From positions 192,001 to 256,000 of the forward strand of contig CAXXXF010000014.1 of NCBI GenBank assembly GCA_963667175.2: DNA of 64,000 nucleotides. Direction: 5' to 3'. Positions 4,032-60,900 of this stretch are shown here, piece after piece. The translations under genes and the position numbers were made by a program. How positions within the stretch are numbered: position 1 is the stretch's first letter; each line of letters starts with the position of its first letter. The notes under the pieces are model-generated. The model was not told where the DNA came from, searched no databases, and was given only the letters and a program-made list of their open reading frames with translations. This DNA is from Candidatus Latescibacterota bacterium. Its GTDB lineage: Bacteria; Latescibacterota; UBA2968; GCA-2709665.

Positions 4032-4213
4032 AAGTCCGTTGAAAAAGTCGCTCTGCAGGCGAGGTCGAGTCATTGTGGCCGAAGACAAGGCGCGCGACCG
4101 ACGCGAATCCCCGGATTCGGGGAGGGAGCGCCTGCCTGCCGCAGGCAGGCAACGCCGTCATTCGGTCACAAGGGCCGGACGCAGACCGGATGGCCTTTGT
4201 CAACGGGCTGTCA
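4029..4213. mobile_element. MITE-like element with imperfect terminal inverted repeats, copy 1
   Basis: Ends AGAAGTCCGTTGAAAAAGTC and GCCTTTGTCAACGGGCTGTCA; the right half recurs inverted at 34093-34210; contains a 19-bp CCTG/CAGG mini-element at 4131-4149. Confidence 0.65.
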
Positions 4214-4252
4214 GGGAGCCGGCAGCGAAGACAACCCACCCGGAGAATCCAA

Positions 4253-5059
4253 ATGACAAACCTGGCTATCTGCGGCATCGCGGGACGCATGTGCGGACGC
4301 ATCGCCCATCTTGCCATGGAATCCGACGACCTCGAGGTCGTCGGCGGGGTGGAGGCGCCCGGTAACCTCGCCATCGGACGAGACATCGGCGAGATTCTGG
4401 GAACCGCGCAAACGGGTCACCACGTTGTCGACAACCCGGAATCCGTCGTTGAAAACGCCGACGTGGTCGTCGCCTTTACCGCGCCCCCCGACGGCACGCT
4501 GGACGCCGCACGGATCGCCGGGAAAGCGGGCAGGCCCATGGTGGTGGGCACCACCGGCATGTCGGCTGAGCAACTTGTCGAATTCGAAACGGCCCTTAAG
4601 GACGTCGCCTGCGTTTTTGCGCCAAGCTTCAGCATTGGCGTGACCGTACTCACGAAGCTCGTCGAAGACGCCGCACGTATGATGGGCCGGGGGTACGACG
4701 TGGAAATCGTCGAGGCGCATCACCATTTCAAGACCGACGCGCCCAGCGGAACCGCCCTCGCGCTGGCGAAGGCAGCGGCAGCGGGCCTGGGTCGAAACCT
4801 GGAGGACGTGGCCCTTTTCGGACGACACGGAGAAGTGGGCGCCCGCACCGGGGATGAAATCGGCATCCATGCCATCCGCGCCGGGGACCTGGCGGGAGAG
4901 CATACCGTCATCTTCGGCGGCACGGGCGAAATCTTCCAGCTGGTTCACCGCGCGCAGAGCCGGGATTCCTATGGCGTGGGCGTCCTCGAGGCCATCCGGT
5001 TTGTCGTGAACGCGCGCCCGGGGATGTTCACCATGCGGGACGTGCTGGGCATCGAGTAA
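4253..5059 (+). CDS. dapB: 4-hydroxy-tetrahydrodipicolinate reductase
   Basis: GIAGRM, VGTTG, PSFSIG, EAHHHFKTDAPSGTA, RAGDLAGEHTVIF; start ATG 4253 after GGAG. Confidence 0.95.
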   Translation: MTNLAICGIAGRMCGRIAHLAMESDDLEVVGGVEAPGNLAIGRDIGEILGTAQTGHHVVDNPESVVENADVVVAFTAPPDGTLDAARIAGKAGRPMVVGTTGMSAEQLVEFETALKDVACVFAPSFSIGVTVLTKLVEDAARMMGRGYDVEIVEAHHHFKTDAPSGTALALAKAAAAGLGRNLEDVALFGRHGEVGARTGDEIGIHAIRAGDLAGEHTVIFGGTGEIFQLVHRAQSRDSYGVGVLEAIRFVVNARPGMFTMRDVLGIE

Positions 5060-5183
5060 GGAATCTCGCGAGGCACGTGCGTACCAGACGGCTCGCCGGC
5101 GTTAACGCCGATGCGCAAGACGACAGACTTGAGACGCAGCGGGAACAGTCGAGCACCTTATGTAACGTGAAGGGAGGCCCAGA

Positions 5184-7124
5184 ATGGCAATCGACGCCTC
5201 AGCTGTGGCGGAAGCCATCGAGAGTGGGCATACACTCGCCGCCGCCGACCAGGTACTCATCGATCCGCAGCGCGGTACGCTGAACGTCCGCGTGGACGAA
5301 CTCCTGTCGGCCATACAGAACAACGATTGCCCGGCCAGCGGGGTGTGCCGAACCTTGATCCGGCTTGGGATGAACTTCGTGGGACGCGACGCCGAGATCG
5401 TGGGGTACGGCGCGGACGAGGCGGACGGGGCCCTCGAGCAGGTCCTATCCGCCATCGACGATCTCGAAGGGGCTGTTATGGCGGACGTCGTGGCTGAATT
5501 TCTCGCCGACATGAAGTCCGTCAATGGGAGCGACAGCCTCTCCGGCCTCCTCGCGGAGCGCATCGAAGCGGACCTGAATCCGGCAAGTCCGGGCGGTTCT
5601 TTTCTGACGCTGCTCAAGCGGCAGATGCGCAGCGGCGTCTACTGGGAAATGATCGGCGAGGACTTCTGCAAATTCGGCAATGATTTTGCGCGAGGTCTGG
5701 AATACCTCCGCCACTACGGATTCTGCCAGGTCTCCACCAACCCCGTATTGGCGGCCAAGGCGTTTGACGAAGACGATTCACTTGCCGATCAGCTCAAAAG
5801 CGAAATCGCGAGGCACGACAACTGGACGCAGGACCCCGAGGCTCACGCCGACGAAATCGCCATGGCGGCCACCCTCATCGCCCTCTGGCCCAACCTGTCC
5901 ATTTTCAGGCCGCTCGCGGTGCATACGGACCTTGAAGACTATATGGTCAGCTTCCAGCTCAATCCCAACATCGCCGATCGGGCCGACGCGAGTATCGAGG
6001 ATGCGCGAAACGCGTACGGGCTGGCCGCCGACTTCCTCGAAGGATACGACCGCCTGCTGGGCCTGGGCGAACGCTCCGGCCGGGTGAACCCGAACATCGT
6101 CTTCAAAGTCGCCGCCAGCCACGAGGCCGCCCGAAAGATAACGACGACGCTCAACGGCAATGCCATCGGTTCCAACAATACCGTGGTCTACACCGTGGCC
6201 CAGGAAGTCCAGTTGATCCTGGATGCGTTCGAGGGCAAGGCCCGGGCCGCAAAGGCGGGTGAACAGGTCGTGCGCACCTACGAAACCAACATGGGCGGCC
6301 GGTTCGTAAGTCACCTTCGGGAGGTCGAAGCCGAGAAGATCTTTCTCGACGCCGCGGCTAGGGCGGGTGAAGGCAGGGCGAGCGAACTCCTCGACGCCCT
6401 GGCCGCCGATCTGGACGCCGGCGATACGCCAGACGGGTCCCTGGCCGAGAGGGCCGGGGCCGTCTGCGCTTACGCGAATCTCAAATCCCTCGACCACCGC
6501 ATCGTCCTGGAAGCCGCCGAAGCCGCCGGCCAGTCCGCGGACGCGATCCTGCTGCTGGAAGAAGATCTGAAGAAAGCGGGCACCCTGGTGGCCCGCCGCG
6601 TCTACTGGGTCTTCTTCAGCCCGGAGAACCGGCCGAAATGGGTCGCCCATCTTCGCAGGACATGCGGCGTCACGGACGACCAGGCAGAGTGGATCGTGGA
6701 TTCCATGGACGTCCTTCCCGCTTCCAAACGCATTCCCGAAGACTCCTTCCACACGCTGGGCGCGTCCAACATGTGCAACACCGAGTTTCCGAACCACGCG
6801 CGTGCCGTCCAGATGGCCTCGGAAGCCGACGGCTTCAGCCTTGAGGACTTCCGTGACGCGGTGCTGGATTCCTACGAACCCGGCGTGGACCAGCGCCTGC
6901 GCGAACTTTCCGATTTCTGCCGCGGATACGACCTGACGCCCTCCCTCAAGGACTTTCTGCAGAACGTCGTCGGCATCGATGTCGCCGGCTGGCAGACCCG
7001 GGGCCTGGAACCCGGCGACTGGCCGGATTTCGGTTCCGTGCAGAAAACCAGCGCCGAGTTCCAGGACGCCTACGACACCTTCGCCGGCAAATGCGTCGCC
7101 ATCGCCCGAGAGGTTGCGGATTAG
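5184..7124 (+). CDS. Large transaldolase-family protein
   Basis: STNPVL, SFQLNP, NIVFKVA (Schiff-base Lys), NNTVVYTVAQ, MGGR, ASKR motifs; 646 aa; GGGAGG RBS. Confidence 0.7.
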   Translation: MAIDASAVAEAIESGHTLAAADQVLIDPQRGTLNVRVDELLSAIQNNDCPASGVCRTLIRLGMNFVGRDAEIVGYGADEADGALEQVLSAIDDLEGAVMADVVAEFLADMKSVNGSDSLSGLLAERIEADLNPASPGGSFLTLLKRQMRSGVYWEMIGEDFCKFGNDFARGLEYLRHYGFCQVSTNPVLAAKAFDEDDSLADQLKSEIARHDNWTQDPEAHADEIAMAATLIALWPNLSIFRPLAVHTDLEDYMVSFQLNPNIADRADASIEDARNAYGLAADFLEGYDRLLGLGERSGRVNPNIVFKVAASHEAARKITTTLNGNAIGSNNTVVYTVAQEVQLILDAFEGKARAAKAGEQVVRTYETNMGGRFVSHLREVEAEKIFLDAAARAGEGRASELLDALAADLDAGDTPDGSLAERAGAVCAYANLKSLDHRIVLEAAEAAGQSADAILLLEEDLKKAGTLVARRVYWVFFSPENRPKWVAHLRRTCGVTDDQAEWIVDSMDVLPASKRIPEDSFHTLGASNMCNTEFPNHARAVQMASEADGFSLEDFRDAVLDSYEPGVDQRLRELSDFCRGYDLTPSLKDFLQNVVGIDVAGWQTRGLEPGDWPDFGSVQKTSAEFQDAYDTFAGKCVAIAREVAD

Positions 7125-7268
7125 GTATCCGATAACGGCGCGCGAGTACAGTCAATTCCCGCATTTCCGGGGAAATCGTAATCGTGGCAGGCGCAGCGCC
7201 TGTCCCTTCGTCGTTTGTTCATCCGCGCAGGACCGCAAGACGACCGCCCGACCAGACCCGCTTTCCTT

Positions 7269-8501
7269 ATGAAAACGACAAATCAGGATTCCTGGATCAC
7301 GCAACTCGACCGTGCCGTCGATGGGTTGGAGGACCGCATGGTGCAGACCAGGCGGCATCTCCATGCCCATCCCGAGGTGAGTGGCGAGGAGACGGAGACC
7401 ACCCGGTACCTGGAAGCGCAGCTGGCGTCCGACGGCTTCCACGTCCGCACGGGTCCCGCCGGCCGCGGGGTGATCGCCGAGTCCTCCGGAAACGGGTCGG
7501 GGCGCAGAATCGCCATGAGGGCCGACCTGGATGCGCTACCCATCCAGGACGCCAAAGCCGTCGACTATCGCAGCAGCGTGCGCGGGGCGATGCACGCCTG
7601 CGGCCACGACGCCCATGCCGCCGCCGTGCTGGGGGCCGCTCTGGCGCTCGACGCCGCCGGAAAATCCGGAAACCTGCCCTGGCCCGTTTCCTGGCGGGCC
7701 ATCTTTCAGCCGGCCGAAGAGATCAACCAGGGCGCCCTGGAGATGATCGAAGCCGGGGCGCTGGAGGGCGTCAAGGCGATGCTGGCGCTCCACGTGGACC
7801 CGTCGCGCCCCGCGGGAACCATCGGGCATCGATCGGGCGTCCTGACCGCGCATTGCGATATATTGCGCGTGCTCGTCCGGGGCAGCGGCGGTCATGCGGC
7901 GCGACCCCATGAGTCAAGGGACCCCATTGCCGCGGCGGCCCAGTTGATCAACGCGCTCTACGCGGCGGTGCCGAGGTCGCTCGATCCGCGGCATACCGTG
8001 GTCCTGACGGTCGGCTCCGTGACAGCCGGAAGACGTTACAATGCGATTCCCGATCGCGCGGTGCTCATGGGCGCCGTACGCAGCCTCGACAAGGGCGCCC
8101 GCCGCCGGGCCCTCGAACGTGTGCGGGAGGTCGGCGAGGGGGTGGCGCGCACGTCCGGCACGGAAATCGACGTCACGTTCAGATCCGGGCCTCCGTCGGT
8201 CCTGAACGATCCGGGCCTGACCAATCTGATCCGGGATTGCGCGGTCGACCTGCTCGGGCCCGACCGGGTCCAGCACATCGAGCAGCCCAGCATGGGAGGC
8301 GATGATTTCGCCCATTATCTCAACCACGTTCCAGGCAGCCTGTTTCGCCTCGGATGCTCGGCTCCGGGGGCGCCGGTGACGAGCCTGCATTCGCCGGATT
8401 TCGACGTCGACGAACGCGCGCTGGGCATCGGCGCGAAGATTCTGGCGCGCGCGGTCGTGTCATGGTCGAAACCGAAAACTCACGACAAAGAGGCAGATTG
8501 A
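7269..8501 (+). CDS. M20D family amidohydrolase
   Basis: RRHLHAHPEVSGEE, RADLDALP, MHACGHDAH, FQPAEE, GGHAARPH, LHSPDF. Confidence 0.92.
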   Translation: MKTTNQDSWITQLDRAVDGLEDRMVQTRRHLHAHPEVSGEETETTRYLEAQLASDGFHVRTGPAGRGVIAESSGNGSGRRIAMRADLDALPIQDAKAVDYRSSVRGAMHACGHDAHAAAVLGAALALDAAGKSGNLPWPVSWRAIFQPAEEINQGALEMIEAGALEGVKAMLALHVDPSRPAGTIGHRSGVLTAHCDILRVLVRGSGGHAARPHESRDPIAAAAQLINALYAAVPRSLDPRHTVVLTVGSVTAGRRYNAIPDRAVLMGAVRSLDKGARRRALERVREVGEGVARTSGTEIDVTFRSGPPSVLNDPGLTNLIRDCAVDLLGPDRVQHIEQPSMGGDDFAHYLNHVPGSLFRLGCSAPGAPVTSLHSPDFDVDERALGIGAKILARAVVSWSKPKTHDKEAD

Positions 8502-9628: not shown

Positions 9629-9651
9629 CCCCCGCCGTCCCGATCGCTCAC

Positions 9652-9686
9652 GAAAAGAAAAGGCGCATCCCTCACGGCATGCGCCT
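9652..9686 (-). terminator. Intrinsic terminator of pyrH-purD-purE
   Basis: Minus strand AGGCGCAT-N10-ATGCGCCT followed by TTTCTTTT. Confidence 0.7.
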
Positions 9687-9715
9687 CCAATCCGCCAATC
9701 AGTCGATATCCGATG

Positions 9716-10162
9716 CTAACCTTCCGCGAGGCCCTTCTTGTAGGCCTCCAGCTTCTCCTTGACGCCCGCGTCCGTCTGCGCGATGATCTGTGCGGCGAGC
9801 ACGGCGGCGTTTCTCGCGTTGTCGATCCCCACGCAGGCCACGGGCACTCCGGGCGGCATCTGTACGATCGCATACAGCGAATCGATCCCGTTCAGCGCCC
9901 CGGAGGCGACCGGCACCCCGATGACGGGCAACGTGGTATGCGCCGCCATCACGCCGGGCAGCGCCGCCGCAAGGCCCGCGCCGGCGATAATGACTTTCAG
10001 CCCGCGCGATTCTGCCGTGCGCGCAAACTCGCCCGTCCGATCGGGGTTCCGATGCGCGGACGACACGGTCATCTCGTACGGTATGCCGAATTCTTCAAGA
10101 ATGGGTATTGCCTTCTGCATGATCGGTTCGTCGGACTTGCTGCCCATAATTATGCCTACCAC
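9716..10162 (-). CDS. purE: N5-CAIR mutase
   Basis: [39 protein letters not shown]; GTG start after AGGAGGAGG. Confidence 0.96.
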
Positions 10163-10223
10163 AATCCTCCTCCTCTGGTATGTTTGAACGGCTTGATGAC
10201 AGATTCGCCTCACTGGAATCGCC

Positions 10224-23062: not shown

Positions 23063-23150
23063 AGCTATCAGCCGTCAGCATTCAGCCGTCAGCTTGAATC
23101 AAAGACCGTTGACGTCTGCGCCCTGAAACGACAGGCACCGAATGGGCGCG
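23063..23150 (+). repeat. Heptamer (TCAGCCG-type) tandem-repeat element, copy 1
   Basis: AGCTATCAGCCGTCAGCATTCAGCCGTCAGCTTGAATCAAAGA...GTCTGCGCC; homologs at 32566-32740, 45964-46060 and inverted at 60960-61003. Confidence 0.7.
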
Positions 23151-23237
23151 TCGAGGGCAGGACCTGCCTGCCGAGCAGGTCTCGGCCTGTCTGCCGCTCC
23201 AACGGGACAGGCAGGCGCAGGCAGGTGCCCTCGCTCC
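23145..23237 (+). repeat. ~93-bp composite direct repeat (REP-like hairpin carrying nested CCTG/CAGG elements), left copy
   Basis: Identical to 24310-24402 except one mismatch. Confidence 0.9.
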
Positions 23238-23317
23238 CGGGGAAACGAGGAGACGGAAGAGGGACACACAATGGCCCCCGGAAACGATGTGGCATCGAAG
23301 CCACTTGCTGGCATTTC

Positions 23318-24120: not shown

Positions 24121-24272
24121 GGGTATTGGAGTGACTTTGACACGAATTCATATCCGGGCGAAACATCCCACGTACGAAAGAACGGGGGAAGGCGGGGAGG
24201 CAGCCGTCAGCCAAAAGCGGTTAACGATATGCCCCCCAGCACGGAGGATTTCTGATATCCGCGCCAACAGAC

Positions 24273-24511
24273 GGGCAACCACAAGGGTTGCCCCTACAAA
24301 AACACAGGTGGCGCGTCGAGGGCAGGACCTGCCTGCCGAGCAGGTCTCGGCCTGTCTGCCGCTCCAACGGGACAGGCGGGCGCAGGCAGGTGCCCTCGCT
24401 CCGGGGAGAGCGGGAGACGCAAGCGTTGCCCCTACAGATTCACGTGCGGCGCGAAATGGCCTGCGGCTTCACGGGATTTGCTACAGCGCACAAACTGACA
24501 GTTTGTGCTAC
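24273..24511 (-). repeat. Cluster of GTAG-type REP palindromes
   Basis: GTAGGGGCAACCCTTGTGGTTGCCC (24273-24297), GTAGGGGCAACGCTTGCGTCTCC (~24414-24436), GTAGCACAAACTGTCAGTTTGTGC (24488-24511). Confidence 0.7.
24310..24402 (+). repeat. ~93-bp composite direct repeat, right copy
   Basis: Matches 23145-23237. Confidence 0.9.
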
Positions 24512-25755: not shown

Positions 25756-25827
25756 TGAGCCCGGAAGGATTTGAACCTTCGACCAACGGCTTAAAAGGCC
25801 GCTGCTCTACCCCTGAGCTACGGGCCC
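25756..25827 (-). tRNA. tRNA-Lys(UUU), CCA not encoded
   Basis: GGGCCCGTAGCTCAGGGGTAGAGCAGCGGC-CTTTTAA-GCCGTTGGTCGAAGGTTCAAATCCTTCCGGGCTCA cloverleaf. Confidence 0.95.
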
Positions 25828-32565: not shown

Positions 32566-32776
32566 TAGCTGATAGCTTTCGGCTCTCAGCCGTCAGCTCG
32601 AAGCGAAAATCAGCTCACACGGAGACACAAAGGGAAAGAACAGCTATCAGCAGTCGGCTATCAGCCGTCAGCTTGAGTCAAAAACATAATCCATTAACGT
32701 CGGCGCCGTGATGATGAAGCACCGGAAGGGACGCAGACCTCTCTCCCCGGCCCCTCTCCTAAAGGAAAAGGGGAGT
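32566..32776 (+). repeat. Heptamer tandem-repeat composite element, copy 2, ending in a CCCCTCTCC...GGGGAG hairpin (empty site for the 33-bp mini-element)
   Basis: CAGCTATCAGCAGTCGGCTATCAGCCGTCAGCTTGAGTCAAAA...CGGCGCCGTGA...CGCAGACCTCTCTCCCCGG|CCCCTCTCC. Confidence 0.7.
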
Positions 32777-34094: not shown

Positions 34095-34210
34095 CAGCCC
34101 GTTGATAAAGTCCATCCGGGCTGCCTGCCTGTGCGTTCGCACGCAGACAGGCGTCCGGCCCTTGTGGCCGAAATACGGCGTTGCCTGCCTGCAGCAGGCA
34201 GGCGCTCCCG
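34093..34210. mobile_element. Partial inverted copy of the 4029-4213 MITE, carrying two CCTG/CAGG mini-elements
   Basis: Reverse complement aligns to ~4124-4213 with an extra 28-bp insert at 34124-34151. Confidence 0.75.
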
Positions 34211-45963: not shown

Positions 45964-46132
45964 GAGCGATCAGCCATTAGCTTTCAGCCGTCGGCTTGAA
46001 TCAAGAGCAACTGAATTTAAGTCTGCGCCGTGAGGAAACAGGGTCGTAACGGGCGCAGACCTCACCCCCCGGCCTGCCTGCGCCGAGACCTGCTCGGCAG
46101 GCAGGCCCCCTCTCCCGGGGGGAGAGGGGGAG
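45964..46132 (+). repeat. Heptamer tandem-repeat composite element, copy 3 (filled with a 33-bp mini-element at 46073-46105)
   Basis: ATCAGCCATTAGCTTTCAGCCGTCGGCTTGAATCAAGA...GTCTGCGCCGTGA...CGCAGACCTCACCCCCCGG[insert]CCCCCTCTCCC. Confidence 0.75.
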
Positions 46133-50362: not shown

Positions 50363-50886
50363 CGTATCACCTCCGTTCGAAGGGCCGCGCGCGAAGGCTC
50401 GTGATTCCAAATAAGGACAAAAGTCCGCATCCGGCAACCCAAAAAGCGAGGCGGGCGCCCCGGGCTGCCTAGTGTCCTGTCCCGGAAATAAGTTGCCTGA
50501 ATTCGGCCGTCGAGTCGCCCGGCTCGCAAGGCGCCAGAGCGCAGGCGACCTGGCCAGGTCGACGAGCGAAGGCAACGCTGCGAGACGGGATGAATCGGCG
50601 GAAGAATGGTGAGGTATTATCGGGACAGGACATTAGGTCTTTCGCGGGAATTTCGATTCGCCTATCTTTCGGCCGCCGACGGAAGCCACAGGGCGCCGAA
50701 CGGAGATCGAATCGACGGAAACGACTCCTGTACGTGTATACGCCCGGGGGAACGATCCGGTTGCCTGGCGATATCAATCCGAGGATGCCGGATATCTTCA
50801 TGGGCGACCCGCCGGTCGCCCATGCTACACGTCGGGGTCATTATCCATTCCAGTAACCACAAACCCTGACGTGAAAGGATCCACGA

Positions 50887-52005
50887 ATGCCAAAGGTCCT
50901 CCTTCTGGGCGGCTTCCTGCCCGGCCAGTCCCTCTGGAGCATTCAGCAGGGGTTCAAGCGCATCGGCTACGACGTCCTCTATCAACCCACGCGAGGGTGT
51001 ATCGAGGCCCATCTTGAGGCCGATATCGCGCTGGCGAAGGAGGAGGCCGACGTCATCCCCCCACACGAAACGTGGGACCTGAAATACAGGGATATCGAAG
51101 CGTTCCAGGAAGGTCTGTTCAAGACGATTATCGAACACGAACCGGTACTGCTCATCTGGTGGTTCAGCAAAGACGACCGCCCGCCCGGGCTCATCGCGGA
51201 ACTTCGGGAAAGATTCCCCTGGTGCAAGACCGTCACCCATACGCAGGACGACCCCTGGGACCTGCTGCGGAGCCCTCATTTCACGGCGGAGTTCGAATTC
51301 GCGGCCACGTGTTGCAGAGAAAGCGTGGACGTCTACGCCAGTCGCGGGATACGGGCCATCGTCCTCTACCCGCCGCCGGCGATGGAACTGCATCGGCTCT
51401 CGAGACCGGCGCGACACGAGGAATGTGACTTCTCCGTCACCATCATGTCGCTCTACACAAAAGAAGGCGGCAGCCCGGAGGAGTACCTGGAATCCGAAGA
51501 CCTGGTCAAACGGATCACCCACACCATTCCCTTCCCGCGGCAGCGGGCGCTGCGGCAAGACATGGTCGCCGCGCTGACAGACCTGGGACGGGTGCACGTC
51601 TACGGCGGCCTGGGATTCGGCACGTTCGAAAACCTGCCCCGGTATTCCTATCGCGGCTTCCGGAGCTACATGGAACTTCCGGGCGTGTACAGGGCCTCGA
51701 AGATCAACGTCAACCAGCACAACTCACCCGAAGCGTACGGGTACCTGAATCAACGGGACACCGCAATTACCGGCAGCGGCGGATTCATGTTGACCGATTA
51801 CGTTGCGGGCATCGAGGAAATCTTCGACGTCGGCACGGAGATAGATACGTGGTCCGACCTGGAGGAACTCCGGCAAAAAGCGCGATGGTGGCTCGAACAC
51901 GAAACCCAGCGGAAAAACGCCGCGGCGCGCGCGCAGGACCGAATCCTCAAAGAGTATGGCAACGCGGCCTATGCCAGGAAATTGACTGAATTCGTGAAAG
52001 GATAG
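50887..52005 (+). CDS. CgeB-like glycosyltransferase (GT-B)
   Basis: QDDP, VYRASKINVN, LNQRD..ITGSGGFMLTD, SDLEELRQK. Confidence 0.78.
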   Translation: MPKVLLLGGFLPGQSLWSIQQGFKRIGYDVLYQPTRGCIEAHLEADIALAKEEADVIPPHETWDLKYRDIEAFQEGLFKTIIEHEPVLLIWWFSKDDRPPGLIAELRERFPWCKTVTHTQDDPWDLLRSPHFTAEFEFAATCCRESVDVYASRGIRAIVLYPPPAMELHRLSRPARHEECDFSVTIMSLYTKEGGSPEEYLESEDLVKRITHTIPFPRQRALRQDMVAALTDLGRVHVYGGLGFGTFENLPRYSYRGFRSYMELPGVYRASKINVNQHNSPEAYGYLNQRDTAITGSGGFMLTDYVAGIEEIFDVGTEIDTWSDLEELRQKARWWLEHETQRKNAAARAQDRILKEYGNAAYARKLTEFVKG

Positions 52006-52084: not shown

Positions 52085-52842
<758 letters not shown>

Positions 52843-52856: not shown

Positions 52857-53726
52857 CTACCCCGGTTCGGATTCGCCGAGGATACGCAGCGCGTTCCGAT
52901 ACGTCATCTTGTCGTACGCGTCCCGTGGCAACGAAAGGCCCTGGAAGAAATCCATCAGCGCCGTGTCGAAATAGTCCCGACCCCACAGCAGTTTGTCCTG
53001 AAACTCGAGGAGGAATCTCTTTCCGACCGCGGGGTCGCGCTTAAGCGCATTCAGGGCCGAACCCGCCGAGAGGTCCGCCCACAGATTGTCGTACTGGCGC
53101 ATCAGTTCCCACAGTCTTCCTCCCGGAAGTACCGGCGCCCGCGGGTACGACTCTTTGTCATAGAGATCGTCTCCCGAGATGTGCGCCCAGAACCCCGGCG
53201 CGTGACCGATAAACGTGGTTTCCGGGCAGGCCGCGACCGCCCGCTCGAATGCCTCGATACTCCCCCCATACCAGTAGTTCGGTCTGGGATAGTTCCCCCG
53301 GCCATGATTGATGGGATAGTCGAGGTGGATCGTTATGGGCAGTTTCATTTCGGCGCAGGCGTTATAGAGCTGAATCGCGTCCGGATCGTCGAACAGGACC
53401 CGCACCTTCATCTCGCTGGCAACCTGAATGCCGTGTATCTCATGCGCCGCCCGCAGGCGGTCCGCCGCGTCGGGCCGTTTCGGATGCGGGAAATAGCCCA
53501 GCACGAAGCGGTCGCGCGCCTCCCTTCCCACCTGCAGCACGTCTTCCAGCGGAATGCCCACCCCGCCCGGAGGCAGGGCTTTGTGATAGGACGGATCGTA
53601 TTCGTCTTCCGGCGCCTCCCAGGTAAACAGCCACATCCTGTCGATGCCCTGTTCATCCATATTGTTCAAAATCCTCTTTGCATCGTAACCGTGCCAGTTC
53701 GGATGGTTGTGGGCGTCAATCAGCAT
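52857..53726 (-). CDS. Amidohydrolase family protein
   Basis: IDAHNH, PITIH, FIGHAPGFW, ADLSAGS, LLWGRD. Confidence 0.88.
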   Translation of the reverse strand: MLIDAHNHPNWHGYDAKRILNNMDEQGIDRMWLFTWEAPEDEYDPSYHKALPPGGVGIPLEDVLQVGREARDRFVLGYFPHPKRPDAADRLRAAHEIHGIQVASEMKVRVLFDDPDAIQLYNACAEMKLPITIHLDYPINHGRGNYPRPNYWYGGSIEAFERAVAACPETTFIGHAPGFWAHISGDDLYDKESYPRAPVLPGGRLWELMRQYDNLWADLSAGSALNALKRDPAVGKRFLLEFQDKLLWGRDYFDTALMDFFQGLSLPRDAYDKMTYRNALRILGESEPG

Positions 53727-53910
53727 CTTGTCTTACCTCCCTGTAGAAATCTCCCACGTTTTATCCCGGTCTGCCGGGCCTCCGTTCGGCGCGAACAAAC
53801 GACTTGACAAATCACCCGAACCCGATAATATGGGACGCGCAATCCGGAGACAGGCCCGCCTGCGCGGACGGCCGCCACGTTGTATCGCGTTCATGACGGA
53901 AAGGAATCGA

Positions 53911-55125
53911 ATGGCCGGACAATCCAACGGAAGACGGGTGAACCTCGCCATGGTGGGCTGCGGCGGCATCGCCGGCGCGCACCTCAGGGGATACGCCGAA
54001 CTCCTCGAGAAAAACGAAACGCGTTTTCGCATTGTCGCTGCCGTGGACGACGTCCCGGAACGCGCCAGGGAAATGGCAGACCGAATTGAGAGTCACACCG
54101 GCGAGCCGGTAAACGCCTACAGGACCGTGGAAGAACTGCTCAACGGCGAGAAACATCTGGACGGCGCCGATATCTGCGGCCCTCACGGTCTGCATCACGT
54201 CCTGGCCTGCGAGCTTCTTGCCGGCGGCGTGCATATTCTCTGCGAAAAACCCATCGGCATCACGGTGAAAGCCACGAAAAAGATAATCGCCGCGGCAAAG
54301 AAACACAAACGCATTGCCGCAACGGCCGAACAGTGCCGCCGCAGCGTCGGACAGCGCGCCATCCATTGGGCCTTCAACGCGGGCGGGCTGCTGGGAGAAC
54401 CCCGCTTCTGGCTGGCTGCCAGCGCCACCTGGCAGGACCCGCAGAAGTTTCCGGACTGGCACTGGCGCGTGGACCGTCGGCTGGGCGGGTGCGGCATGGT
54501 GATGGACAGCGGCGCCCACTGGGTGGATACAATGCGCTACTGGTTCGGCGAAATAGACAGCGTCTACGCCCGCGTGGAGCAAATTGAAAAACGCCCGCAC
54601 CGGAAGGGACGACGAATCATCAACGACACGCGAGAAGACTTCTGGACCAGCATCTTCAATTTCAAGAGCGGCGTTATCGGCACCTGGTCCTGGACCAACA
54701 GCGCCCCCGGCAAGGGATTCCTGCAACTCAATCTGACGGGCAGCAAGGGAACCCTTGTGGAGTACGATATCTTCCATCCGGCGGCAAGCACGCTTCGCGG
54801 CGAGTGTCAGTTGCAGGATGGCGTTTCGTACAGCATGGAACGCGTTGTGGGTATGTATCGGAGGAGCTTGAGCAAAGAAGAGAACCAACGCCTGTTTCCC
54901 CATGGCATCACCGGCGGCATGCCCCTGGAACTCAGGGACTTTATTGACGCGATCAGCACCGGGCGCAACGTGGAAATCGATGCGGAGGAAGGTCTGCGCA
55001 GCAAGGCAGTGAGTGAAGCGCTGTACGAATCGGGCAAATCCCGCGAAGTCGTCAAGGTAAATGACGTGCTCAGCGGAAAGGTCAACGCCTACCAGCGCGA
55101 CATCGACGAATACTGGCAGTTGTAA
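53911..55125 (+). CDS. Gfo/Idh/MocA family oxidoreductase
   Basis: VGCGGIA, PHGLH, LCEKP, DSGAHWVD. Confidence 0.9.
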   Translation: MAGQSNGRRVNLAMVGCGGIAGAHLRGYAELLEKNETRFRIVAAVDDVPERAREMADRIESHTGEPVNAYRTVEELLNGEKHLDGADICGPHGLHHVLACELLAGGVHILCEKPIGITVKATKKIIAAAKKHKRIAATAEQCRRSVGQRAIHWAFNAGGLLGEPRFWLAASATWQDPQKFPDWHWRVDRRLGGCGMVMDSGAHWVDTMRYWFGEIDSVYARVEQIEKRPHRKGRRIINDTREDFWTSIFNFKSGVIGTWSWTNSAPGKGFLQLNLTGSKGTLVEYDIFHPAASTLRGECQLQDGVSYSMERVVGMYRRSLSKEENQRLFPHGITGGMPLELRDFIDAISTGRNVEIDAEEGLRSKAVSEALYESGKSREVVKVNDVLSGKVNAYQRDIDEYWQL

Positions 55126-55241
55126 TGCGCCCGAGCGGAGGCGACCCGTGCGAGGTCGACCCGGGGTTTCGAGACCTGTCTGCCGCGCGATGCTTGGCGC
55201 AGGCAGGCGGGAGAACGTCTACCTGTCTGGGGGAAAGTACA

Positions 55242-57089
55242 TCAGGACTGTTGCAGAGCGGCGCGCTCGGCCGCGAAAGTCTGCAGGAGCTGTTCCGTAT
55301 CCTGCTGGAATCGTTCCACCGGCTCGTGAATCTGGTGCCGGAACTCCTCGCAGGTTGCCTGGTAGTACTCCTGAGCCGCCCCGCGGAACACGGCGGCGTG
55401 CTGTTGAAGCGTCCGGTGGTCGTCCTGAAAATGCTCGAGGCGGTCGTGAAGCGTCCGCATCAGACGGCTGGCGTACGCCCCCATGTTTTTTCGGTAGGCC
55501 GCGCGATAACCATTGCGGAAGTGTTCCAGGTGCTCGATCGCCTCGTCCAGAAACGTCTTCACTTCGTCGACCTGCAACGCGCGCTGTGTCGTCAGAATCA
55601 GGTGATGGCCCTGGACGGCCAGCCGCACCGCGTCGGACAGACTGGCGGGATGTTTGACGAGCACCTGCAAGAGGAATTTCCAGTATTCCGACCGGTAATT
55701 CCTGTTCCAGACGCCCTGCCGCCAGATTGAACGGAAGAACGCCCTGACTTCCTGCATCCGGATCGGCATGCTGCCGACGGGCTGGCGTTTCCGGTGACTG
55801 AAGAACGTCAGGCACCGCTCGAAGAAAACCTGCGGACTGTTCAAAATTTCGACCGTCTTCCGGTGCCGGTCAAGCAGCGCGTCCGGGTCGATCACGGGGA
55901 CGTAGCTCAATTCACGACTGAAAATGCCGGAATCTCCTGTGTACTTCGCGCCTTCCACCAGCCGCCCCTGCCGGCTGAATCTTTTATAATCCGGAGTATC
56001 CCGCAATACGCCGAGGATGCCCACCATAGCTACCGGAATGCCCGCCTCACGGATGAAGGCGATGGTCCGTTCCGCGATATCGTCCGGATCAGTATCCAGC
56101 CCGATAATGAAGCCCGCCTGCACCTCGAATCCGGTCTCCTGGAGAATCTTCACCTTGTCCATGAGCGGCGTCTCGCCCTGCAGGTTTTTCTGTGCGCCCA
56201 TGAATTTCAGGCTTTCCTCTACCGGAGACTCGATTCCGGCGAATACCTTGTCGAACCCCGCGCTGTACATGGCCTCGAGCAGTTCAGGATCGTCGCTGAC
56301 GCGAATGCTGGCCTGGGTGTGGAACTGAAAAGGATAGCCGCGCTCCTGCTGCCAAGGCACGACCTCATCCGTAAGCGCGTGGCGGATGGCCTCCCGATTC
56401 CCTACGAAGTTATCGTCGACCGCCATCACGGCGCCGCGCCATCCCGCGTTGTAGAGCGCATCGAGTTCCTGAATCATCCTGCTCTTGCTCTTCAGTCGTG
56501 TCGTCTTCCCATAGAGCGACGGAATATTGCAGAAGGTACAGCTTTCCGGACACCCGCGCGTGACCTGGATCACCATATTGCTGTAGTCGTCAAAGTCGAT
56601 GAGGGACCAGCGGGGCAGCGGCGTTACGGCCAGATCCTGAAAACTCCCGCGACGGTCCACGTATTCCCGGATGACCTCTCCCGAAGCGTTGGCGAGCCGG
56701 TCGACGATATCCATAAAGCCGTTCTCGGCCTCACCCAGGTAGAATACTCCGTTACCCTCGATTTCTTCGTAATATTGGGTCGGCAGCGGGCCGCCGTTCA
56801 GGACGGGAACCCCTATTCGGTTGCAGCGCGCAATCACGTCTTCCAACGAGTGCCAGTGAATGATCATTGACGACGTGATCACGATATCCGCCCATTCGAG
56901 ATCCTCGTCGATCAGCGGGTGGGTGTTCATATCGACCATGCGCAGGTTATAGGAATCGGGCATCATACCGGCAATGGTAAGGAGCCCCAGCGGCGGGAAT
57001 GCGACCTTCTTGTCGATCATTTTCAGGGCTTCGTCAAAACTCCAGAACGTCACGGGATTCTGGGGACTGATCAGCAACGCATTCGGCAT
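55242..57089 (-). CDS. B12-binding radical SAM protein (HpnP/DUF4070-like)
   Basis: FPPLGLLT, GGP, RGCPESCTFC, VDDNF, GIESP, GFIIGLD. Confidence 0.9.
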   Translation of the reverse strand: MPNALLISPQNPVTFWSFDEALKMIDKKVAFPPLGLLTIAGMMPDSYNLRMVDMNTHPLIDEDLEWADIVITSSMIIHWHSLEDVIARCNRIGVPVLNGGPLPTQYYEEIEGNGVFYLGEAENGFMDIVDRLANASGEVIREYVDRRGSFQDLAVTPLPRWSLIDFDDYSNMVIQVTRGCPESCTFCNIPSLYGKTTRLKSKSRMIQELDALYNAGWRGAVMAVDDNFVGNREAIRHALTDEVVPWQQERGYPFQFHTQASIRVSDDPELLEAMYSAGFDKVFAGIESPVEESLKFMGAQKNLQGETPLMDKVKILQETGFEVQAGFIIGLDTDPDDIAERTIAFIREAGIPVAMVGILGVLRDTPDYKRFSRQGRLVEGAKYTGDSGIFSRELSYVPVIDPDALLDRHRKTVEILNSPQVFFERCLTFFSHRKRQPVGSMPIRMQEVRAFFRSIWRQGVWNRNYRSEYWKFLLQVLVKHPASLSDAVRLAVQGHHLILTTQRALQVDEVKTFLDEAIEHLEHFRNGYRAAYRKNMGAYASRLMRTLHDRLEHFQDDHRTLQQHAAVFRGAAQEYYQATCEEFRHQIHEPVERFQQDTEQLLQTFAAERAALQQS

Positions 57090-57446
57090 GTACCAACCCT
57101 TTCAACGAACACACAAAGAGACCGCCCTTACGGAAACGGCCGGACAATCGCAGCAGGTCGTCTGTCCGCGCCGGCGGTTTGAATCATCGACCCGCCCGAT
57201 CCGCGCGGACATCAGGCGCTTTCAGACTATAATATAACGGTTTTTGGGATTCGCGCCACCGTAAAAGTGACCGGCTTCGAGGCCCCGATGCCGGGAACGT
57301 CGCGCCGCCAGGCCGATGTTCCCTTGGCTCCGGAACGGACAGGAGATTACCCTTGACAGGGCGTCCGGAACCGCCGTAACATATTGAAGAAACGCCATGT
57401 CCGGGCGTCACCGGATTTGTTCGTCCACTATTCACGGGGAAATGCC

Positions 57447-58184
57447 TTGGCCCTGACCGAAGAGGATCTGTGGTATTTCAACCACACCGGCATCTACAGG
57501 GTTCCGGAAACCCTGCCGGACGATCTCGTCGGACGCCTGAACGCCGTGACCGACGAACAGATCCGGGGGATGATCGAACCGGTTGTCTGGGAGAAATCCG
57601 GCTCTCGCGGACCCGGCGACGTGCGCCGGCTCTCGAAGATCCTCTCCCGTGACCGTACTTATCTCCACGCGGCCACTCATCCTCGTGTTCTGGATCCACT
57701 CACATCCATTCTCGGCCCGAATATCGAATTGCTCACGAACAAACACAATCACATCATGGTCCGCCCGCCTGGATCAGAAACCGTCTACTGGCACAGCGGA
57801 GAAGAACCCTACCAGCCCGCACTGGTTACGGCCCTCATCTACCTCGAGGAGTCCACTCTGGACAATGGCTGCGTCCGCATCGTGCCGGGAAGCCATCGGC
57901 GTCCGTTCAGGCGTCCGCGACGTCCGGACGGGGAGTTCGAGACCTCCGACCTATTCACCAAATCTCTCCCCGTGCCGATGCCGCGCGGGGGTGTCCTGCT
58001 GTTCAACGACGCATGCTTCCACGGTTCCGGCGCCAACAATTCGACCGTTTCCCGAAGGAGCATGACACTGGGTTACCAGACGCACGCCGCCCACGACGTC
58101 ATCAAAGAGGACCCTGAAAAAATCCTCGTCGCGGGCGAACGAATCTATATCGGTCATCCGCACCCTTTCCCCCGGGTCGAGTAA
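57447..58184 (+). CDS. Phytanoyl-CoA dioxygenase (PhyH) family protein
   Basis: YLEESTLDNGCVRIVPGSH, FHGSGANNS..SRR; TTG start after GGGGA. Confidence 0.85.
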   Translation: MALTEEDLWYFNHTGIYRVPETLPDDLVGRLNAVTDEQIRGMIEPVVWEKSGSRGPGDVRRLSKILSRDRTYLHAATHPRVLDPLTSILGPNIELLTNKHNHIMVRPPGSETVYWHSGEEPYQPALVTALIYLEESTLDNGCVRIVPGSHRRPFRRPRRPDGEFETSDLFTKSLPVPMPRGGVLLFNDACFHGSGANNSTVSRRSMTLGYQTHAAHDVIKEDPEKILVAGERIYIGHPHPFPRVE

Positions 58185-58196
58185 GAGGAGACGCCG

Positions 58197-58868
58197 ATGG
58201 ACGGCATACACGATATGGGCGGGATGCACGGATTCGGCCCGGTCGTACGCGAAGAAGACGAACCCCTGTTCCATCATGAGTGGGAAAGGCGCGTGCTGGG
58301 CATCGCCGTTGCCACACCCGTGCCCGTGCCCGGCGGTTCGCGCAACAACATCGAAAACATGGACCCTGCCCACTATCTGTCGTCCACCTACTACGAAAAG
58401 TGGCTACACTCCAGGGTCAAGGGCCTGATCGATGCCGGCGCCCTTACAGCGAACGAGCTGGAGACGAGAATGGCGCTGCTCCGGAAGAGGCCGGACGCCG
58501 AAACACCGGTCCACCCCGACCCGGACGGCGTCCGCGCTGACCTCGCGAGCCGAGGAACGGCTCCATCCACACCATCGCAAGCGGACGTGCGGCCGCAATA
58601 TCAAGAAGGCGACCCGGTACTGGCGCTGAACCTCCACCCTGAAGGGCACACCCGGCTTCCGCGGTACGTCCGGGGAAAAACGGGCACGATCGCGCGCTTT
58701 TACGGTATCCACGACCTTCAGGACGCCGAATTGCCCCGCGGGTGCGTGCGCCGCGAACAACCGCTGTATGCCGTGCGCTTCGCATCCCGCGAACTGTGGG
58801 GGGAGTGTGCCGAAGCCGGTAGCGCAGTCTATCTGGATATGTGGGAAGGCTATCTGGAACCCGTGTAA
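58197..58868 (+). CDS. nthB: Nitrile hydratase beta subunit
   Basis: MDGIHDMGGMHGFG, WERR, YYEKW, HTRLPRYVRGK, YAVRF. Confidence 0.95.
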   Translation: MDGIHDMGGMHGFGPVVREEDEPLFHHEWERRVLGIAVATPVPVPGGSRNNIENMDPAHYLSSTYYEKWLHSRVKGLIDAGALTANELETRMALLRKRPDAETPVHPDPDGVRADLASRGTAPSTPSQADVRPQYQEGDPVLALNLHPEGHTRLPRYVRGKTGTIARFYGIHDLQDAELPRGCVRREQPLYAVRFASRELWGECAEAGSAVYLDMWEGYLEPV

Positions 58869-58898
58869 TCACAACTGGAACAGAGAGGGCCCGTTGCC

Positions 58899-59507
58899 AT
58901 GAGCAGACATGAAGACACGGTACCGAGCGGGCCCGACGCGGCGCTACGCACACGAGCGCTGGAGTCGCTCCTGGTTGAGAAGGGTCTGGTCACGACCGAA
59001 CGCATAGACGAAGTCGTGAACATGTACGAGAACGACGTCGGCCCGCTCAACGGCGCCAGAGTGGTGGCCCGCGCCTGGACGGACCCCGACTACAGGCGGA
59101 GACTGCTGGAAGACGGCAGAGCGGCGATTGCGGAACTGGGCTTCAGCGGCAGGGAGGGCGCTGAGATCGTCGTTCTGGAAAACACGCCGGAAGTCCACAA
59201 CGTTGTGGTTTGCACCCTGTGCTCCTGTTATCCCTGGCAGGTGCTCGGCCTGCCGCCCGGATGGTACAAGTCCTACGCCTACCGCTCCCGACTCGTCCGG
59301 GAACCGAGAGCCGTACTGAAGGAGTTCGACCTTCATCTGCCCGATTCGGTGGAGGTCCGTGTCTGGGACAGCAACTCGGATCTCCGCTATATGGTACTCC
59401 CGGAACGTCCCGGCGGCACGGAAGGCTTTACCGAGGAGGCGCTTGTCCCGCTCGTCACGCGCGACGCGATGATCGGCGTTGCCAGGCTCGATTCCCCATC
59501 GACGTGA
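58899..59507 (+). CDS. nthA: Nitrile hydratase alpha subunit, cobalt type
   Basis: [10 protein letters not shown] (Thr/Tyr = Co-type signature), [17 protein letters not shown]. Confidence 0.96.
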
Positions 59508-59573
59508 GACGAGCATGATCCGTGGAATCGACAGGAAGATTGCGGACGCGGAAACGACCTTGCGATCCGTCAA

Positions 59574-60557
59574 TCAGGCGCCCACGTTAACCGGCCGGCC
59601 CTCCCGCGCCGACCTGTAGACGGCCTCCAGCAACGCCACTGTCCGGCGGCCTTCCCGCCCGTGGACCCGGAGCGGCGTCCTTCTCTCCACGGCGCTGACC
59701 ACGTCCTCCACGATATTCTGAAGTGGATTCTCCACCGTCGCCAGCCGTTCCTGCAGACCCTCGCCGAATACCTTCATGCCGCCGGTCAGCACGTCTTCGA
59801 TCAGCACCCCGCCGTCCGATCCGTGAACTTCCGCGCTGAAATACGCACTCGACGGAAACGTGGTGGTTCCGACAATCGTGCCTTTCGCGCCGCTCTCGAA
59901 ATTCACGATCGCCAGCCCGATATCCTCAGTCTCGATCTCGTGATTCATGACGGCCATTTCACCATAGACCGAAACCGCGTCGCCCATAAACCAGCACAGC
60001 ACGTCCAGGAGGTGCGCCCCCTGGTTGGCGAGCGATCCGCCCCCGTCCATCTTCCACGTCCCACGCCAGCCGCCGCTCGCCTCGAAATAGGACGCCGCCC
60101 GGAACCACTTGAAACGCACCTCGCCGAGAATGGGCTTGCCGAGCCAGCCCCGCCTCAGCGCTTCGGCCACGCGCCAGTTGTTGTCGACGTACCGGCTCTG
60201 GTAGTCCACGCCGCAGAGCACGCCGGCCTCGTCGCAGGCCGCGATCAACCGGTCGCACGCGTCGGTCGACACGTCCATGGGCTTGGTCGTGATCACGTGT
60301 TTGGCCGCGCGGGCTGCCCGGATGCCCAGGTCGGCGTGGGTCCCGCTGGGGGTCATCACCATCACCACGTCCACGTCCGCCCGATCAAGCGCCGCGTTCA
60401 GGTCCGTCGTGCCCTCCACGTCCAGTTCGGAACTCACCTTTTCCAGGCGCGTTCGGTCCAGGTCCACCACGACCTTCAACTCCGCGCCGTCCGTGGCGTG
60501 GATCAGTCTGGACCGGTTGTGTCCCATTCCCAGGCCGACAACCGCGAATCCGACCAT
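59574..60557 (-). CDS. Gfo/Idh/MocA family oxidoreductase
   Basis: VGLGMG, TPSGTH, TKPM, WRGTWKMDGGGSLANQGAH. Confidence 0.92.
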   Translation of the reverse strand: MVGFAVVGLGMGHNRSRLIHATDGAELKVVVDLDRTRLEKVSSELDVEGTTDLNAALDRADVDVVMVMTPSGTHADLGIRAARAAKHVITTKPMDVSTDACDRLIAACDEAGVLCGVDYQSRYVDNNWRVAEALRRGWLGKPILGEVRFKWFRAASYFEASGGWRGTWKMDGGGSLANQGAHLLDVLCWFMGDAVSVYGEMAVMNHEIETEDIGLAIVNFESGAKGTIVGTTTFPSSAYFSAEVHGSDGGVLIEDVLTGGMKVFGEGLQERLATVENPLQNIVEDVVSAVERRTPLRVHGREGRRTVALLEAVYRSAREGRPVNVGA

Positions 60558-60664
60558 GTCTGATAGCCTCCCCTGTTGATCTGTCCCAAAAAGACGTCAC
60601 CATTTCCCACAGTTCTCTTTTTGCCTTGGATTCTTCCCCACCCCTTAACTTCCCCTATTCCCTT

Positions 60665-60900
60665 GCCCTTTTTCTTGCTTCGCCCAAGAAAAAGGGCGAA
60701 AAAGAAGGGCGCCTGCCTGCGCAACGTACTGCGCTGCAGGCAGGCCGCTCAAACGCTGCGGGGCTGCTTTTCCGCGAACCGCCTCTGTGAAGAAACATTG
60801 CGCCGTTGCCCTGTAACCCTCGCAGGCGTTCCTGGACGCTCGTGCTGGACGGACTAGCGAGGAAAAGCCCCTACCCGACGACCGGGCGGGCGAAGGGGAT
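60665..60900. repeat. MITE-like intergenic element (TTTTTCTTGCTTCGCCCAAGAAAAAG end) carrying a 33-bp mini-element at 60712-60744
   Basis: Terminal hairpin CTTTTTCTTG-N7-CAAGAAAAAG; right boundary uncertain. Confidence 0.45.

Follow-up and report, generated by a model that had tools for sequence, protein, structure and literature searches.

The sequence examined here (the window) is a 64,000-nucleotide stretch of a Candidatus Latescibacterota genome, G000:C14:192001-256000 in our numbering, and its source genome, G000, is a 5.52-Mb draft metagenome-assembled genome (MAG) of 18 contigs with ~60% G+C, 95% completeness and 4.75% contamination. In the gaps between the long open reading frames (ORFs) of the window lie eight loci with a total of ten members of a family of hairpin-forming units, which are 19–36 bases long and have the fixed ends CCTGCCTG...CAGGCAGG. 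These units enter DNA as one piece and can be absent, or swapped for another member, at exactly the same junction. They were first described in an interpretation made from the letters of the window alone (hereafter, the sequence-only reading), which proposed a system of ultra-short mobile elements and gave positions for ten units at eight loci; on reading the sequence, we found every one of these coordinates to be correct. Its statement that all copies are intergenic holds for the eight window loci but not genome-wide, where a few copies lie in frame inside genes. The filled and empty sites of the window are as follows, with strand given where assigned and site classes numbered as in the genome-wide search described below.

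4131–4149: 19-bp unit with 8-bp arms and a CCG center, within a ~180-bp composite repeat; junction G^C
4181–4182: empty site in the ~180-bp composite repeat, at which the inverted copy at 34124 has a 28-mer; site class 1, with 27 filled copies
23163–23225 (+): nested pair, an outer 33-mer (23163–23185 plus 23216–23225) split at G^CG by an inner 30-mer (23186–23215)
24328–24390 (+): second copy of the nested pair, outer unit 24328–24350 plus 24381–24390, inner 30-mer 24351–24380
32750–32751: empty site ccccgg^cccctctcc in a host repeat that is filled at 46073; site class 2, with 19 filled copies holding 20-, 33- or 63-bp members
34124–34151 (+): 28-bp unit with right arm CAGACAGG, in the composite repeat; junction G^C
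34184–34202: 19-bp unit with a CAG center, in the composite repeat; junction G^C
46073–46105 (−): 33-bp unit, the exact reverse complement of the uninterrupted 23163 outer unit; junction G^C
55175–55207 (+): 33-bp unit in unique DNA between two convergent ORFs (C14:247175); junction A^C
60712–60744: 33-bp unit at the end of a ~82-bp dispersed repeat, exactly empty at the orthologous site of the relative G009; junction G^C

The strict pattern CCTGYCTG-N(3,20)-CAGRCAGG has seven matches in the window, compared with 0.00 expected from 100 dinucleotide-preserving shuffles. It misses three units, namely the two split outer 33-mers and the second inner 30-mer (24351–24380), the latter because its right arm has a single base change (CAGGCGGG). 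Three pairs of filled and empty sites had been proposed within the window and all of them stand: the 23163 outer unit, once its insert is removed, matches 46073–46105 exactly in reverse complement; the flanks of the empty site between 4181 and 4182 differ by one base from those of the 28-mer at 34124; and the site between 32750 and 32751 has a homolog filled with the 33-mer at 46073. The same is true of the junctions, which had been described as purine^pyrimidine, mostly G^C and without target duplication: all ten fall between a purine and a pyrimidine, seven of them at G^C, two at A^T (the outer units at 23163 and 24328) and one at A^C (55175).

Architecture and insertion of the units in the source genome

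A genome-wide pattern search, which the sequence-only reading had suggested, identified 311 units in discrete size classes of 19 bp (n = 51), 20 bp (n = 16), 28 bp (n = 32), 30 bp (n = 36), 33 bp (n = 81) and 36 bp (n = 15), together with nested forms of 63 bp (n = 18), 69 bp (n = 7) and 99 bp (n = 1, a triple). These merge to 277 outer loci spread across all contigs, with gaps of >3 kb between neighboring loci in 177 of 259 cases. Only 52 of the 277 loci fall within open frames of ≥400 codons, compared with 169 of 277 random sites. As a control, the reversed pattern was found 0–2 times per genome versus 265 pattern matches in G000, and no Rfam family covers the units.

As had been noted for the window, the units share 8-bp terminal inverted repeats and differ in their cores. 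The arms, (CCTG)2 and (CAGG)2, form an invariant 8 bp around a variable inner stem-loop of 0–20 bases, and the common architecture is an 8-bp outer stem, an inner stem and a loop, usually with an unpaired CG beside one arm. These arms are tetranucleotide repeats that are sometimes three repeat units long. Pairing in the 5-bp inner stem reaches 86% across 28 distinct 33-mers, compared with a mean of 67% and a maximum of 76% after shuffling of columns; none of 1,000 shuffles reached the observed value, and slid registers gave 28–51%. Compensatory types of the inner stem include CCGAG/CTCGG, CAGCG/CGCTG, CCGTG/CACGG and TGCGT/ACGCA, and G-T pairs fall on different strands in different subfamilies. 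Because this covariation indicates that the structure of the stem is conserved, we argue that the units pass through a folded single-stranded form in their life cycle. Orthologous units in G000 and G009 differ by only 1–2 bases, and the loops therefore owe their diversity to the age and diversification of the population, not to hypermutation in place.

Empty sites were identified by deleting each unit in silico and searching the joined flanks against G000, leaving out units within 40 bases of a contig end. Using this approach, we found an ungapped empty paralogous site across the junction for 213 of the 311 units. The full set reduces to 107 site classes, including 80 singletons, several of which may be of old date or due to chance. 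At position −1, 80 of the 107 site classes have G, and at position +1, 72 have C, with a G^C junction in 58. Positions −2 to −4 are mixed C, G or T, leaving only the −1 and +1 bases biased, and beyond position 1 the flanks show neither complementarity nor a common sequence. A lack of purine^pyrimidine bias had been named beforehand as an observation that would speak against mobility; across site classes, the bias is strong. We also considered a 2-bp GC target duplication, which is ruled out by A^C and A^T sites where the insert still begins with CCTG and ends with CAGG. Insertion is blunt, without target duplication, and takes place between a purine and a pyrimidine. These exact junctions bear out the proposal that the units are far shorter than miniature inverted-repeat transposable elements (MITEs) and are gained or lost whole.

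The same host site can be empty or occupied by different members, and site class 0 alone holds 19-, 30-, 33- and 63-bp forms. Units have entered unique DNA, other repeats, coding DNA (in frame) and other family members, with nesting in both directions (33-mers in 30-mers, 30-mers in 33-mers and also 36-mers in 33-mers) and up to three levels deep in the 99-bp triple. In the window, the nested pair at 23163–23225 occupies the loop of a repetitive extragenic palindromic (REP) hairpin (cgagggca..tgccctcg) with an A^T junction (site class 11), and other copies of this REP-loop site hold a 20-mer or a different 33-mer.

Most G000 copies arose by hitch-hiking on the amplification of a unit-bearing host repeat. 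Most 19-mers and 28-mers are fixed parts of the amplified ~180-bp composite repeat, and the unit at 4131–4149 has 13 identical copies genome-wide at the same position in that repeat. While units do occur within other repeats, as the sequence-only reading had emphasized, much of the apparent preference is thus one insertion copied along with its host repeat. For the further idea that insertion favors hairpin-rich DNA, any effect is weak at best: predicted hairpin loops contain the junction of 16 of 107 site classes, compared with 57 of 600 random G^C sites, and in other phyla they contain 17 of 113 junctions, compared with 28 of 226 shifted controls.

Several insertions lie in or beside identifiable genes. 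An insertion sequence (IS) with an ORF of 157 amino acids (aa) that matches HTH_Tnp_1 weakly is found at G000:C6:661899-662372 and 15 other places at 92–97% identity; a 33-mer is located a few bases past the stop codon in ten copies and is exactly absent in others. Two of the few units deep inside genes are in frame in restriction–modification genes: a 21-mer at C14:322172-322192 adds seven residues to a linker of a type I HsdR and is absent in the relatives G009 and G012, and a 33-mer at G000:C17:85170-85202 lies inside a fusion of N6_Mtase and Methylase_S.

Gains, bursts and distribution across bacteria

We compared G000 with other genomes, one per species. Matches were found in 25 of 31 relatives at counts ranging from 0 to 265, and the distribution is patchy even within one genus, with genomes dominated by different cores that have the same arms. 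Two of these relatives, G009 and G012, are syntenic with G000 and ~92% identical to it, the three being about equidistant. By pattern, the number of units genome-wide is 265 in G000, 216 in G009 and 22 in G012, and matching 400-kb blocks contain 25, 25 and 2 outer loci, respectively.

As the sequence-only reading had anticipated, presence/absence polymorphism at orthologous loci is abundant and has exact junctions. In alignments, units found only in G000 include C14:322172, window 55175 and a composite at C14:261101, and one unit is found only in G009 (G9:70558). Other sites are filled in G009 and empty in G000 (G9:122510 and G9:275976/314899), or are common to G000 and G009 and exactly empty in G012 (C14:328758 and G9:230063). 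Replacement, with a 19-mer in one genome and a 33-mer at the same MITE site in the other, was seen twice; a 21-mer inside a 33-mer is present in G000 only, and a unit with a degraded arm in G012 indicates decay. A 4.4-kb tree does not resolve the G000/G009/G012 trio (bootstrap 56), and so units common to two of the three cannot be polarized.

The unit at window 55175 is absent from G009, G012, G008 and G006, which have 13 other bases there, such that relatives more distant than the trio are empty as well. No three-taxon tree explains both the G000-only and the G009-only units by single losses, and 55175 is empty in four relatives; gains therefore happen, and the 55175 unit is a gain in the source lineage. 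It had been considered that empty alleles might be deletions from filled outgroups, whereas at 55175 it is the relatives that are empty. Exact losses or conversions probably occur as well. Among public run data, in the form of Logan contigs, the unit is spanned by contigs of runs X1 and X2. Window positions 53000–62500 are covered by contigs of runs X2–X4, labeled as sponge metagenome and from one study, and of X1, from another study; the long contigs of X1–X4 differ little from the window, indicating that the organism or a close relative was present in those samples.

A further burst is found in G031, a complete 3.66-Mb gammaproteobacterial MAG with 676 units, compared with 0–11 units in 20 of its relatives (none in 15 of the 20). 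The first 400 kb of this genome contain 77 units, of which 74 are 19-mers, and 55 of the 77 junctions are purine^pyrimidine (A^T, n = 24; G^C, n = 15; G^T, n = 9; A^C, n = 7). An IS481-like rve transposase gene (G031:C1:376900-378200 and five other copies) is broken by up to seven 19-bp units, with consecutive translated pieces whose frames join when 19 bases are skipped. Each compared copy has three to seven frame-breaking 19-mers, yet the copies are 95–100% identical. Across the six copies, three sites are filled in all and four of seven are polymorphic for the exact presence or absence of the 19-mer, with a pattern at sites 1697 and 1889 that requires at least one loss, recurrent gain or conversion. 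As the IS is still multi-copy, a bolder and more speculative extension of the minimal-element reading given below is that the units may act as reversible 'DNA introns' or as a host tool for silencing transposase genes. One unit splits the apparent ATG start codon of the transposase gene.

These comparisons bear on the possibility that the units are not mobile at all, their sites having been filled ancestrally or brought along by host repeats, with empty sites arising as precise deletions stimulated by the hairpin. Palindromes are prone to deletion, and both the requirement at IS481-like sites 1697 and 1889 and the decayed unit kept by G012 are compatible with loss. However, the G000-only and G009-only units are both in unique DNA, the four relatives noted above are empty at 55175, and hsdR, which carries a 21-bp in-frame unit in G000, is uninterrupted in two relatives. 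An identical 20-mer is also found in many phyla in unrelated contexts, and the copy number of G031 far exceeds that of its relatives. We consider an entirely immobile family to be extremely improbable.

Searching one genome per prokaryotic species with a stricter form of the pattern that has G...C flanks, we identified at least 117 stretches. The phyla among the matches listed are Omnitrophota, Patescibacteria groups, Bacteroidota, Planctomycetota, Nitrospirae, Acidobacteria, Gammaproteobacteria and Latescibacterota; again among the matches listed, genomes with several or long-core matches are Latescibacterota MAGs, and at least 41 matches are one identical 22-mer, for which <0.1 would be expected by chance (own arithmetic). 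Across phyla, the forms that recur most often are 19/20-mers, perfect or nearly so, in which a center of 3–4 bases varies. Five genomes from the cross-phylum scan have 676, 45, 14, 6 and 1 units, and G041, a relative of G031, has 30-mers of the same core type as in G000. Units were also found in 28 stretches of viral contigs. Identical tiny sequences in unrelated hosts, combined with bursts in single lineages, indicate horizontal spread followed by local proliferation. In other phyla, 21/22-mers are often located inside the widespread hairpin repeats gtcattcc...ggaatgac or gtcattgcgag...cgaagcaatc (for example, L099, L120, L127 and L188), and several small hairpin repeat families seem to co-occur across environmental bacteria.

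A different origin for such short forms would be scars of break repair, in which both ends of a double-strand break receive the same CCTG-repeat tail or adaptor-like hairpin and are then joined, resulting in a palindrome with a variable center. This would account for the tetranucleotide-repeat arms and their occasional third repeat unit, for the 19/20-mers with variable 3–4-base centers that prevail across phyla, for blunt insertion without duplication and for the loss of 13 bases that accompanied the 55175 insertion. In contrast, longer members have asymmetric, family-specific cores, a one-sided CG bulge and covarying stems that are common to many copies and genomes, pointing to replicating lineages and not to de novo synthesis, and reverse transcriptase was not found in G015, a genome with 225 copies, or in G012 and G008. 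Repair scars are therefore an improbable source of the family.

Mobilization of the units

On balance, we lean toward the interpretation that the units are a non-autonomous form of mobile DNA, each a single hairpin, whose movement depends on a structure-specific strand-transfer activity that acts in trans and that only some lineages possess. The moving form would be the folded single strand, as suggested by covariation of the stems. This hairpin would be cut out or copied and then joined to its target by a structure-specific activity supplied in trans and presumably carried by some lineages only. Such a lineage-limited activity would explain bursts of 265, 216 and 676 copies beside relatives with 0–22.

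Several results weigh against this interpretation, beginning with the search for the enzyme. We profiled seven families: Y1_Tnp (PF01797), Y2_Tnp (PF04986), TnpB (PF07282), IS110 (PF01548), RVT_1 (PF00078), PDDEXK_2 (PF12784) and Transposase_31 (PF04754), a set that leaves aside serine and tyrosine recombinases as too common to discriminate. None of the seven tracks copy number across genomes, and the trans-acting enzyme invoked by the sequence-only reading did not emerge from them. Specifically, Y1_Tnp has no match in G031 with its 676 copies; Y2_Tnp was not found in G009, G012 and G008 and has nine matches in G031; and TnpB has no match over the cut-off in five genomes. IS110 and RVT_1 were found in G009 and G031 but not in G015 with its 225 copies, and RVT_1 was also not found in G012 and G008. 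Among five genomes, PDDEXK_2 was not found in any and Transposase_31 was found only in the low-copy G012; all seven families, including these Rpn families, were rejected as drivers on the basis of their phyletic pattern. The REP-associated tyrosine transposase (RAYT)-like protein of G000 has a homolog in low-copy G012 (E = 2e-17) and none in G031. The enzyme is none of the known hairpin-handling transposases that could be tested. G000 is 95% complete, and the search would overlook an enzyme gene located on a plasmid or phage left out of the assembly.

The remaining points on this side concern the units themselves. Independent insertions number at most ~107 site classes, far below copy number. 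Long members with the same ends enclosing an ORF, which the sequence-only reading had expected to be informative, do not exceed chance, with 134 end pairs 160–6,000 bp apart versus ~107 expected by density. The orientation of singletons in the draft G000 relative to local GC skew (14:4 versus 7:9) gives no clear replication bias of the type seen in single-strand transposons, and CAG versus CTG centers number 31:26 in 400 kb of G031, a stretch with weak skew. In the Logan contigs, ongoing excision is represented by one weak joint only, in a repeat: it skips exactly 60711–60743 in X1 (two contigs) and X3 (one contig), has sides of 27–30 letters in a dispersed repeat with raised depth and may be an empty paralog, and so we do not count it as evidence.

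Individual candidates for an enzyme-bearing member were also set aside. Of the four best long end pairs (≥12 of 14 matching extended ends), three were examined and are single-copy with long open frames and no sign of mobility; one of these three has the same left end as the fourth pair. ORFs between neighboring units encode an S1 domain protein, a PhyH-like protein, HTH_Tnp_1 (16 copies), DDE_Tnp_1 and a RAYT-like protein, none of which is bounded specifically by units.

The main rival explanation is copying by universal host machinery, with no dedicated enzyme: replication or repair would copy the units when a nascent strand or flap switches to an existing unit as template, or snaps back, and returns with one-base homology on each side, or universal single-strand nicking and rejoining would suffice, making the unit a selfish replicator that needs only to invade. 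The failure of all seven enzyme families to track the elements fits this explanation, as does G015, which has 225 copies and no detected IS110, reverse transcriptase, TnpB, PDDEXK_2 or Transposase_31. The preferred flank differs by genome despite identical ends (G^C in G000 and mostly A^T in G031), as expected if flank bases travel with the donor; flank base and terminal base of the unit are identical at G^C sites, providing one base of microhomology on each side; and the orientation counts reveal no clear strand bias. On the other hand, copy number differs tenfold at 92% identity between genomes that all have some copies (G009, 216; G012, 22), which suggests a lineage-specific factor. Flanks past position 1 lack complementarity or common sequence, and G000 has insertions at A^C and A^T that lack microhomology on one side. 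Taking both sides together, we regard host machinery acting alone as unlikely.

A more conventional explanation is that the units are ordinary REP sequences cut and rejoined by a RAYT, as in REP/REPIN systems (REPINs being REP doublets). In favor of this, the units are small, palindromic, present in many copies and mostly extragenic, RAYT-like Y1 proteins are encoded in G000, and in genus g1 a PF01797 match is present in five of six genomes with ≥63 copies versus three of nine with ≤22. Yet the RAYT-like ORFs of G000 (C3:192505-193110 and two copies on C7) are flanked by other REP families and not by CCTG units; one C7 copy does have a CCTG-bearing host repeat on each side, which is not the case for the other. 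The units have neither a GTAG nor a CGTC tag and are single, not REPIN doublets. Across relatives, none of 12 Y1 loci has units on both sides and one (L011) has a single unit. Finally, G031 has no Y1 match by family or by protein, while low-copy G012 has a homolog. Taken together, these findings make a RAYT an improbable driver.

The RAYT-like loci have several features of their own. The ORF in G000:C3:192200-194000 (201 aa, weak Y1_Tnp match) has numerous copies of another REP (cgagggca-loop-tgccctcg) around it, and CCTG units have landed repeatedly in the loop of that REP, also at window 23140–23240. A second RAYT-like ORF of 199 aa, in G000:C7:59500-63600 (~5 copies), is accompanied by GTAG-tagged palindromes, GTAGGGGCAGG...CCTGCCCCTAC; one such palindrome lies inside the C7 RAYT-like ORF region, and a related palindrome is found in the window at ~24272–24296. 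G007, G009, G011, G016 and G034 contain very long open frames (1,196–1,570 aa) with a partial Y1_Tnp-like stretch (profile ~40–121), and no such match is listed for G000.

Movement through RNA, by reverse transcription of a transcribed hairpin into a nick, is very improbable. It would be in keeping with stems that keep their pairing only through G-T (G-U) on one strand and with the presence of a group II intron in the window, but the wobble-tolerant strand varies between subfamilies, RVT_1 is among the families not found in 225-copy G015, and neither a poly-A tract nor a sign of priming accompanies the units, both ends of which are exact. RAYT-driven REPs, break-repair scars, pure deletion and the RNA route are each less likely than the explanation based on host machinery. 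The intron is represented by group II RNA domains at window 52085–52816 (−; Rfam RF02003 and RF00029), with an adjacent long ORF at ~50660–52000 that may be the intron-encoded protein. Elsewhere, the window contains a lysine riboswitch at 880–1060 (+), upstream of an ORF at 1176–2213, and a tRNA gene at 25756–25827 (−).

Significance and comparison with known systems

If the units are indeed moved as folded single strands by an activity supplied in trans, they could represent a new minimal class of mobile DNA. Its smallest replicating unit would be a 19-base hairpin with an 8-bp stem and a 3-base loop. An activity specific for hairpins, with no relation to the known Y1/Y2 HUH, TnpB, IS110, reverse transcriptase or Rpn families, would cut and join this unit exactly at purine^pyrimidine steps, and the unit would pass between phyla and burst in single lineages. 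This larger claim is a tentative one that we regard as possible but doubtful.

The question of how REP-like repeats and smaller ones spread has long been open, and in REPINs, the only well-studied case, the answer rests on a linked RAYT gene. Here, smaller units (19–36 bp) enter unique sites, genes and each other exactly, they recur across phyla, and none of the usual enzymes goes with them. Natural contrasts make the question testable, namely G009 versus G012 (216 and 22 units at 92% identity) and G031 versus its 20 relatives (676 and 0–11 units). Hairpin-specific, scarless insertion of a 19–33-base piece without duplication would be of interest to genome engineers. The units are also worth recognizing during annotation, as they split genes, break IS elements and inflate repeat counts.

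A string search of the literature found no paper containing the 19-, 20- or 21-mer, though subscription journals and supplements outside the search may describe them, and the 8-mer alone returned primers only. A paper on Thiomargarita, returned by a search for palindromic nested mobile elements, is unrelated.

Like MITEs, the units are non-autonomous and have terminal inverted repeats and filled and empty sites; unlike MITEs, they lack a target-site duplication, are 19–36 bp compared with about 70–300 bp, and no parent IS with the same ends was found. IS200/IS605 single-strand 'peel and paste' elements, which also have ORF-less derivatives, carry a pair of subterminal hairpins, require TnpA and insert, with a lagging-strand bias, on the 3′ side of a fixed tetra- or pentanucleotide. 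The units resemble them in exact excision and insertion, lack of duplication and dependence on a hairpin, but have one hairpin, a bias at −1/+1 only and no clear strand bias, and TnpA was not found in G031. IS91/Helitron-like (Y2 HUH) elements differ in that PF04986 was not found in G009, G012 and G008. Yeast mitochondrial GC clusters and 'byp' insertions are short, GC-rich and palindromic and also occur within protein-coding genes. Rickettsia palindromic elements, mentioned in PMC3733652, are likewise short palindromic insertions that are also found within protein-coding genes. The units are similar to these three groups in being short GC-rich palindromic insertions that also occur within genes, and differ from them in compartment, sequence and junctions.

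The closest known kinds are REP/REPIN sequences and cyanobacterial small dispersed repeats. As characterized in PMC3733652 and PMC3116915, REPs and REPINs are 20–40-bp imperfect palindromes that are present in hundreds of copies, are mostly extragenic, form within-genome sequence populations and sometimes lie in other palindromes or in frame in genes. The units are alike in being 19–36 bp, palindromic, high-copy and mostly extragenic, in forming populations of related sequences inside a genome and in sometimes occupying other palindromes or in-frame positions in genes. In contrast, they have no GTAG/CGTC tag and no flanking RAYT gene, and Y1 genes do not track them; their ends are CCTG(C/T)CTG and CAG(G/A)CAGG in 311 of 311 cases, by definition of the search, with only G at −1 and C at +1 in the flanks. 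The unit is a single hairpin and not a doublet, occurs singly at unique sites and inserts into members of its own family.

Small dispersed repeats of 21–27 nt (SDR4–6) were reportedly described in heterocyst-forming cyanobacteria by Elhai et al. in 2008 (Genome Res 18:1484). According to PMC4390886, SDR5 enters the HIP1 octamer at a precise point, between bases three and four. These repeats, known here by description only, are similarly very small, precisely inserted and nested in other repeats. While SDR4–6, compared on that same descriptive basis, belong to other taxa, the units described here have CCTG-repeat arms, reach 676 copies in a genome and cross phyla in identical form.

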